A stretch of DNA of 47,812 bases from a virus (IMGVR_UViG_649989947_000010:1-47812); one strand, 5' to 3'. Positions 3,612 to 4,451 are shown, numbered from the stretch's first letter. Program-made: numbers and translations. The notes: generated from the sequence alone by a model not told the origin.

Positions 3612-3634
3612 ACAAAAAAGCCCCGTTCAGGGGC
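3612..3634 (-). terminator. Rho-independent terminator after the T5orf172-like gene
   Basis: Minus-strand hairpin GCCCCTGAACGGGGC followed by TTTTTTGTG immediately after the stop at 3642. Confidence 0.6.
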
Positions 3635-3641
3635 ATCAGTG

Positions 3642-4451
3642 TTATTTGCTAAGAGCAGCGAATAATCGTTCGAAATCGATAGTATCTATAGCACGCGTAA
3701 GCGCCGGAAGTTCAGCCTCAAAGTACCCGTGTCGATCGTAAAAGAAGGGACCGAAGAGCGAGGCATGTTGGATTCTACTTCGCCCCAGCCCGGACACACA
3801 GTTAAGCCCATTACCGGCTAAAAGGCTAAAAAACTTCTCTGGATTATCGTGGTAAAGCTGGGAATCAATGGTGGCGGTTAACTCTTCCATAGGGAAGCAC
3901 ACCCGCCCTGTCTCCCAGGGATATTTAGTCCGAAGCATAAACATTGCTTTCAGCAATTCACATTGAGCGCGGATCGCGTCCGGTTCATAGCCAGATATGG
4001 AGACATAAGCCACGTCCCTCATTCCTGCGTCATCTTTGAAAGTCACGATAGAAGTAACATCCAGCTCTTTTTCGAAAGAGCAAGCAGCATCTACTGGACG
4101 CTGAAGTAAATCATTCGACTTAATGCGCTCGAGAATCCCTCCCCACATATCATTTAGATATTCGATATGAGCCAAAACCTTATCAAGACACTCTCGTGTA
4201 AACCATTCAGTATGCCCGCCACCGGCGCTTTTCTCCCACGGCGCATTCTAGGGGAAAAAGGTTGCGTGTAAAGCTCGCTCAAGATTAACCATTGCCAAAC
4301 GCGTACCACGATAGACCCGTGAAAGCGCAAAATCGGGACTCACTTGTAGCCCTTTAAACCGTGCCAATGGACCACATGAAATGCCGATTTTAAAAGTATC
4401 TCCGTTCTCCGGCACCAGAACGTAGAGGTAGTATTGTTTTTCTTCTTGCAT
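3642..4451 (-). pseudogene. T5orf172 (GIY-YIG-like) domain gene interrupted by in-frame amber codon (TAG at 4247-4245)
   Basis: ORFs 4248..4451 and 3642..4175 share one frame; N-part has YLYVLVPENGDTFKIGIS, and the conserved GGHTEWF motif lies 12 codons after the TAG, so the stop falls inside the domain. Confidence 0.55.

Follow-up and report, generated by a model that had tools for sequence, protein, structure and literature searches.

The window, that is, the whole stretch of viral DNA analysed here (47,812 nucleotides), carries a p0111 replicon module of 2,259 bp at positions 3576..5834, which replaces 1,500 bp of P1 (P1 positions 61316-62815). The identity to P1 is 98.9% up to window position 3575, on the parA side, and 93.9% from position 5835, on the upfA side. 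Within the module, five origin (incC-like) iterons with a spacing of 21-22 bp (5705..5812) lie upstream of repA' (4744..5628, minus strand), which encodes a p0111-type initiator of the Rep3 family with 294 amino acids; the naming of this repA' type follows PMC9603915. On the other side of repA' is an incA-like iteron array (4482..4744) in which the core TATAGTCAAC occurs six times, in both orientations; the last copy ends 31 bp upstream of the ATG of the gene considered here. This gene occupies the parA-proximal edge of the module. A distance of 67 bp separates its stop codon from the breakpoint, and IncY-type plasmids all begin to match at this same breakpoint. The P1-homologous flank contains a P1-type par promoter (TGTACA-17-TATTAT; 3528..3556, minus strand) and parA (2277..3473, minus strand; 398 amino acids), the downstream neighbour of the gene and a control in the selection analysis described below.

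The p0111 replicon has been found instead of the IncY replicon in 24 of 55 P1-like phage-plasmids, roughly half (PMC9603915). The MOB-suite typing in PLSDB labels the replicons of loci L001 and L053-L055 'IncHI1B', whereas the literature uses 'p0111' for the same repA'; this mismatch looks like a problem of typing labels. In another part of the window, two copies of IS10 directly adjoin each other. The first (22918-24246; 1,329 bp) is complete, encodes a transposase of 402 amino acids and includes RNA-OUT at 22963-23032; the second (24247-25396) is without the first 179 bp and is 99.65% identical. The pair (22909-25405) is flanked by the 9-bp direct duplication GACCCTGTA, and it could be either a tandem arrangement or an assembly artefact.

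The whole disrupted gene lies on the minus strand at 3642..4451 (810 nt, 269 codons plus a TAA stop). In translation, the frame from 4451 to 3642 starts as MQEEKQYYLYVLVPENGDTFKIGIS, reads FFP* at an in-frame amber codon, resumes as NAPWEKSAGGGHTEWF and ends with ...ALSK*. The amber codon is codon 68 (4248..4250, minus strand), where intact relatives have TGG (Trp), and the window allele differs from them at this codon by one G>A transition at nucleotide 203 of the gene (window 4249). The 201 codons after the TAG are open to the TAA and contain no secondary lesion. This part of the frame is not open by chance, because hundreds of plasmids have an annotated, uninterrupted coding sequence of 269 amino acids with 99% identity to it. 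The residual N-terminal ORF (4248..4451, minus strand) encodes 67 amino acids with a truncated T5orf172 domain and is present in RefSeq as the hypothetical protein WP_170315437.1. The conserved GGHTEWF motif (4200..4220, minus strand), which includes the putative catalytic Glu82 (4208..4206), starts 10 codons past the TAG, and both are absent from the 67-aa product. A mechanically called ORF of 177 amino acids with a TTG start (3642..4175, minus strand) corresponds to the orphan C-terminal domain and is listed as a separate hypothetical protein, WP_244576594.1. Directly 3' of the gene is an intrinsic-terminator-like hairpin, GCCCC-TGAAC-GGGGC followed by T6 (3620..3634, minus strand), which is conserved in the related plasmid NZ_CP069570.

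A preliminary description of this DNA had placed here a T5orf172/GIY-YIG-like gene with an in-frame TAG and its own terminator, between the iterons and the parA promoter. Each of these points was borne out: the TAG lies in the minus-strand frame 4451..3642, the intact orthologue matches Pfam T5orf172, the hairpin with its T-run is found at 3634..3620, and the gene is bracketed by the iterons at 4482-4744 and the promoter at 3556..3528. The measurements required correction. The amber codon exists, but its correct position is 4250..4248 rather than 4247..4245, a shift of three bases; GGHTEWF had been put 12 codons past the TAG instead of 10, and the total count of codons beyond the TAG had been given as about 182 instead of 201.

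A 1.28-kb segment comprising the gene region is shared at 95% identity or more by 12 phage records and 389 PLSDB plasmids, in which the usual annotation is a single 269-aa 'GIY-YIG nuclease family protein'. Orthologues of the window gene include WP_042102748.1 (NZ_CP069570), YP_009624912.1 of RCS47 and 'gp57' of JL22, and the gene belongs to PHROG 2876 (E=1.6e-192). In phage phi456 (OR339795.1, 39818-41097), the features listed for the region are 'terminase small subunit | RepA'; one of these labels apparently covers the gene and is probably a misannotation. Codon 68 is TGG in NZ_CP069570, SJ46 and RCS47, and Trp68 is also present in a homologue with only 44% identity (P0004). The residue is part of the best-conserved block of the protein, ALHxTFFPWNAPWEKSxxGGxTEWFT, which is unchanged in P0004. 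The nearest intact allele, that of NZ_CP069570, shows five base differences from the window, namely the TAG change and four others, three of which are synonymous; apart from the stop, no amino-acid change is private to the window allele in this comparison. No p0111-type replicon was found that lacks precisely this gene: all 389 p0111-type plasmids with a coverage of 80% or more retain the gene region, and the gene-less IncY-type elements differ across the whole module of 1.5-2.3 kb, not just in the gene.

The intact orthologue matches Pfam PF10544 (T5orf172, GIY-YIG superfamily) at residues 8-85 with 27.3 bits. The 67-aa fragment scores 18.1 bits against the same model, below the Pfam gathering cut-off of 20 bits. 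Arg31 and Glu82, the latter in GGHTEWF, are invariant between two diverged family members, and the position of the motif relative to E180 of Odn and E75 of I-TevI suggests that Glu82, with Arg31, may be a catalytic equivalent. The family is very narrow: apart from fragment clusters, it comprises a single cluster of 1,241 sequences at 90% identity and the lone 44% relative, P0004. A HMMER search with the C-terminal 177 residues against 1.84 billion representatives gave five hits, all from the same family. The C-terminal domain had no match in Pfam, NCBIfam or PADLOC; neither the intact protein nor its C-terminal part matched a defence component in PADLOC-DB at E values up to 1, and NCBIfam and a sequence search of PDB chains likewise returned no match. 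Our survey of literature linking T5orf172 or GIY-YIG proteins to P1-like elements, p0111 or phage-plasmids yielded nothing that characterises this gene.

The P0004 locus has the order Rep3-[gene]-ParA-ParB, with the gene directly after the iterons as in the window. RepA, ParA and ParB of the two elements are 84%, 89% and 68% identical, respectively, and the iteron core is unchanged. The overall identity of the gene product is 44%; the nuclease domain reaches 65% and the C-terminal domain 31%. The called start of P0004 (L051 5001-5123, Logan ERR2144811) adds 41 residues that are translated through the iterons and contain a repeated 'AYSQH', and translation most likely begins at the Met of MENDKKYYLY. 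Structure predictions based on an alignment of the two diverged sequences were weak (pLDDT of 61.8 and 51.3). The best matches of the model of the C-terminal part only (pLDDT 51.3) were generic winged-helix proteins, and replication initiators ranked lower. The best-supported reading of the intact protein is a T5orf172 nuclease domain joined to a C-terminal DNA-binding domain that may be a winged helix. We also considered an Odn-like relationship of the C-terminal domain to a replication initiator. BLASTP against the window RepA and P1 RepA detected no similarity that would indicate a copy of the RepA DNA-binding domain, and hhalign against the Rep3 profile was negative.

The gene has been disrupted repeatedly. 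At least eight independent lesions, the window allele included, were verified at the DNA level. Besides W68 TAG in the window lineage, these are W72 TAG in the complete plasmid pTA13-2, L93 TTG>TAG, S112 TCG>TAG at five loci including pO111 of strain 11128, the ochre mutation Q228 CAA>TAA in the deposited complete genome of phage SJ46, a 2-bp deletion at nucleotides 120-121 of the gene in E. albertii, a frameshifted 808-nt copy in vB_EcoM-673R5, and an IS200/IS605 insertion with an internal deletion (L049 2800-4580, IMGVR_UViG_2645727563_000002). In the last case, the insertion follows about codon 98, and roughly codons 99-183 are lost; the insert contains ORFs for a 389-aa TnpB-like protein and a 141-aa Y1 transposase-like protein, and the IS family was judged from these translations alone. 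Exact-sequence look-ups at the protein level revealed truncated products of 82, 102 (147 contigs), 178 and 223 amino acids and of other lengths. A 197-aa protein encoded on a 108-kb E. coli plasmid (P0005) has an unrelated N-terminus of 79 residues, to which the gene is fused from about codon 106 onwards, and this chimera indicates a further rearrangement allele.

The selection analysis covered 48 sequences (42 IMG/VR loci and others), with repA and parA as controls. The segregating variants in the gene were 35 synonymous, 35 nonsynonymous and 3 nonsense, and no nonsense variants were present in repA or parA. The pN/pS ratio was 0.30 for the gene, 0.02 for repA and 0.00 for parA. Judging from this ratio, the intact copies are still under moderate constraint, and the gene is not simply junk. 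The distribution of lesions clearly indicates, at the level of sequence, that the gene is dispensable for plasmid maintenance and is repeatedly lost.

The position of the amber mutation provides a plausible route for its origin. In intact alleles, the complement of window 4248..4252 reads CCTGG, a Dcm site (full context C-CCTGG-AAT at codon 68), and the window has CCTAG. The gene holds only two CCWGG sites. The partner of the mutated G (nucleotide 203) on the opposite strand is the inner, methylated C of the site, and deamination of this C yields exactly TGG>TAG; deamination at the second Dcm site would give an amber codon at W179. Since the change affects the hotspot position of CCTGG, the W68 amber codon may well have arisen via deamination of 5-methylcytosine. 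Three protein haplotypes include products that stop at codon 68, namely Tyr7/Met54 (14 contigs), His7/Met54 (95 contigs) and His7/Ile54 (12 contigs), with 121 contigs in total; therefore, either recurrence or recombination is needed. The second and third of these haplotypes (P0012 and P0052) are known as protein, and TAG and TGA are both possible codons for them. Products stopping at codon 179, the other Dcm site, occur on two protein haplotypes. Stops are also found at Trp codons outside Dcm sites, namely W72 (6 contigs and one complete plasmid), W83 (4 contigs) and W103 (147 contigs). When the hotspot was tested by exact-sequence look-ups, the predicted alleles were present. However, the test does not discriminate, because the non-Dcm control alleles were also found.

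Taken together, these observations make it highly likely that the TAG is an ordinary inherited loss-of-function mutation, Trp68 TGG->TAG, in a dispensable accessory gene of the p0111 module. A G>A transition, possibly produced by deamination of 5-methylcytosine at the Dcm site, has converted Trp68 into an amber codon in a gene that belongs to the module together with the origin iterons, repA', the incA-like iterons and the terminator. The 67 residues that it still encodes end within the T5orf172 domain, before GGHTEWF and the putative catalytic Glu. The window allele is thus expected to be null for nuclease activity, because this product ends before the conserved Glu82 motif. The preliminary description had offered a recent nonsense mutation as one of two options and had suggested a comparison with homologous phage-plasmids; the TGG (Trp) codon in intact relatives, including the 44%-identical homologue, and the lack of a secondary lesion downstream both favour this option. 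The relatives have this ORF intact and under constraint, whereas here it is disrupted with no compensating feature, which conforms to the usual definition of a pseudogene.

One alternative is that the truncation is adaptive. The G>A transition changes TGGAAT to TAGAAT and thereby creates a sigma-70-like site, TTTACA-16-TAGAAT (4245..4272, minus strand), with 10 of 12 consensus matches; a scan of the intact allele reported no such site. The mutation would then have removed the nuclease and supplied a candidate promoter that drives the 177-aa DNA-binding part as a regulator. The TTG start of this ORF is about 70 nt downstream of the promoter-like site, stop-68 alleles are abundant among the truncations looked up (121 contigs), and there is a precedent in CapR of PLE, which was derived from the DNA-binding domain of a T5orf172 homing endonuclease gene (HEG). 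On the other hand, the promoter is a consensus match only, and AAGG is located just 2 nt before the TTG, a poor spacing for initiation. The lesions at codons 72, 93, 112 and 228, the frameshifts and the IS insertion create no such promoter, yet these lineages persist. The contig counts mirror clonal sampling, and the W103 stop (147 contigs) is commoner. We therefore regard an adaptive truncation of this kind as improbable, and expression of the DNA-binding half alone from the promoter created by G>A as equally so.

A second alternative is that the full-length nuclease is still made at a low level, in a regulated way, either by a suppressor tRNA of the host or phage that decodes the TAG or by leaky termination. 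In favour of such programmed read-through, no further stop interrupts the frame between the TAG and the TAA, and among the five nonsense alleles verified in DNA, four are amber (codons 68, 72, 93 and 112) and one is ochre (codon 228), where about 33% amber is expected. This excess (P about 0.04) is post hoc and was judged too small to interpret, and it is further diluted by the 223-aa product, for which the only single-base route is CGA>TGA (opal). The stop is not conserved: intact relatives and the 44% homologue have TGG, no TAG alleles were present in 191 PLSDB hits and 176 hits in complete E. coli genomes, and Trp68 is invariant within the most conserved block. The ochre, frameshift and IS lesions of the same gene represent plain gene loss that is beyond suppression. 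The tRNA genes of the window (12119-12272 and 14273-14348) are Asn(GTT), Thr(TGT) and Met(CAT), and there is no CUA anticodon among them; this statement covers the 47.8-kb window. P1 presumably has a comparable tRNA set, and its CAT-anticodon gene is regarded as encoding an Ile tRNA that needs lysidine modification. Nothing supports expression that depends on amber suppression, the other option of the preliminary description; there is no recoding, and read-through is very improbable. The window gene should be annotated as a pseudogene and not as a recoding event.

The ordinary loss-of-function reading presupposes that the TAG is real. A sequencing or assembly error at a single base could be suspected because the allele is missing from the public DNA collections that we searched. 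A 61-nt probe centred on the TAG had no identical match among the 191 PLSDB hits or the 176 hits in complete E. coli genomes, and the best matches differ at the TAG base alone; the exact TAG-allele DNA was likewise absent from JGI metagenome contigs, IMG/VR and GTDB representative genomes. However, the identical TAG gene is found in three independent assemblies from separate samples and two repositories (ENA ERZ28581861, ENA ERZ27273012 and Logan SRR5983338); over 5-6 kb, these depart from the window sequence at 1-2 positions. In addition, the exact 67-aa and 177-aa products occur on 14 contigs each, with NCBI RefSeq accessions. These TAG-allele contigs were reached solely via the exact-protein index and not via DNA searches. 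Because the same TAG is present in independent assemblies and its product on 14 contigs, the sequence data indicate an inherited allele of a small lineage in circulation rather than a read error, the probability of which appears minimal. The raw-read check proposed in the preliminary description was aimed at a sense codon at this site, and all three assemblies have TAG. At window 4642, in a spacer between incA-like iterons, the window has C and all three sister contigs have T, a private single-nucleotide polymorphism.

Two genuinely separate genes, one for a small N-terminal protein and one for the 177-aa protein, are what automatic pipelines annotate in the TAG lineage as two hypothetical proteins, but this arrangement, which the preliminary description had also considered, is ruled out with near certainty because the stop falls inside the Pfam T5orf172 domain (residues 8-85) and the homologues have a single ORF, which is the majority state (the 1,241-member cluster and most of the 389 plasmids) and is shared by P0004.

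If the TAG is an ordinary knockout, as we conclude, then the amber codon itself matters little; it is probably recent, and it is already public in the form of two 'hypothetical proteins'. The interest lies in the disrupted gene, an annotated yet uncharacterised member of the T5orf172 type at the exact edge of a replicon swap. The intact protein is most likely a site-specific endonuclease in which catalysis is predicted for the T5orf172 domain and DNA binding for the C-terminal domain, which evolves fast; it would be an endonuclease of the homing or inter-element-competition type, sited at boundaries of genetic exchange. T5orf172 HEGs have been described as genes located at exchange boundaries, with a diverging specificity domain, moderate constraint and frequent decay (Barth et al. 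2021 PMC8263062; Barth et al. 2023 PMC10448857). A role in homing or competition is suggested here because the gene shares this combination, including the essential neighbours: it lies at an exchange boundary flanked by repA' and parA, and it degenerates frequently (at least eight lesions, with a pN/pS of 0.30 against 0.02 or less in its neighbours). Presence/absence polymorphism at a conserved site, another HEG trait, was not seen among the 389 p0111-type plasmids. A role of this type would explain both the position at the IncY/p0111 swap edge and the repeated natural decay.

More specifically, the nuclease might act in competition between P1-like phage-plasmids by cutting the IncY-type replicon or a site at the incA/Ppar junction, a proposal that we consider rather unlikely in this specific form. 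If it were true, either the competitor would be eliminated, or gene conversion would spread the whole p0111 module as a 'replicon-homing' cassette, and the natural knockouts, including the amber allele, would represent the decay phase of the life cycle of a homing endonuclease. The p0111-type P1-like elements carry ESBL and mcr resistance genes, and a gene that evolves much faster than repA and parA and is often lost is a candidate for a function in replicon-module exchange or competition among phage-plasmids.

The overall architecture of the window is the same as that of the canonical IncY replicon of P1 (oriR/incC - repA - incA - Ppar - parAB), with a homologous Rep3-family initiator (42% identity to P1 RepA) and 98.9% nucleotide identity in parAB. 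In P1, the interval between incA iteron 1 and Ppar is about 190 bp and contains no gene, in agreement with the preliminary description, whereas the p0111 module of the window is 759 bp longer than its P1 counterpart, mainly through the gene. The intact p0111-type orthologues occupy the same locus with the same 810 nt (98-99.4% nucleotide identity to the window gene) and the same flanks, with repA' and iterons upstream and the terminator and parA downstream; in contrast to the window, they have TGG instead of TAG at codon 68.

Dcm (CCWGG) sites are reportedly the amber mutational hotspots of E. coli lacI. Like the lacI hotspots, where amber codons result from G:C>A:T transitions at the inner, methylated cytosine of CCWGG, the change in the window affects the same position of CCTGG. 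Compared with lacI, the case for a Dcm origin in the window is circumstantial, consisting of the sequence context and the three haplotype backgrounds, and non-Dcm nonsense alleles of the gene are common too.

Another close parallel is provided by T5orf172 HEGs and by the origin-directed nuclease Odn (Gp88) of the vibriophage ICP1 (PMC8263062, PMC10448857), which combine a T5orf172 domain with a separate putative DNA-binding domain, as the intact protein appears to do. Like the window gene, these genes border an exchanged genome segment, have essential genes as neighbours and are prone to inactivation. In contrast to Odn, in which the nuclease domain is C-terminal, that of the window gene is N-terminal, and its C-terminal domain is neither a CapR/DUF723 zinc finger nor RepA_N. 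The window gene also resides on a temperate phage-plasmid, and the nuclease role proposed for it here is a prediction.
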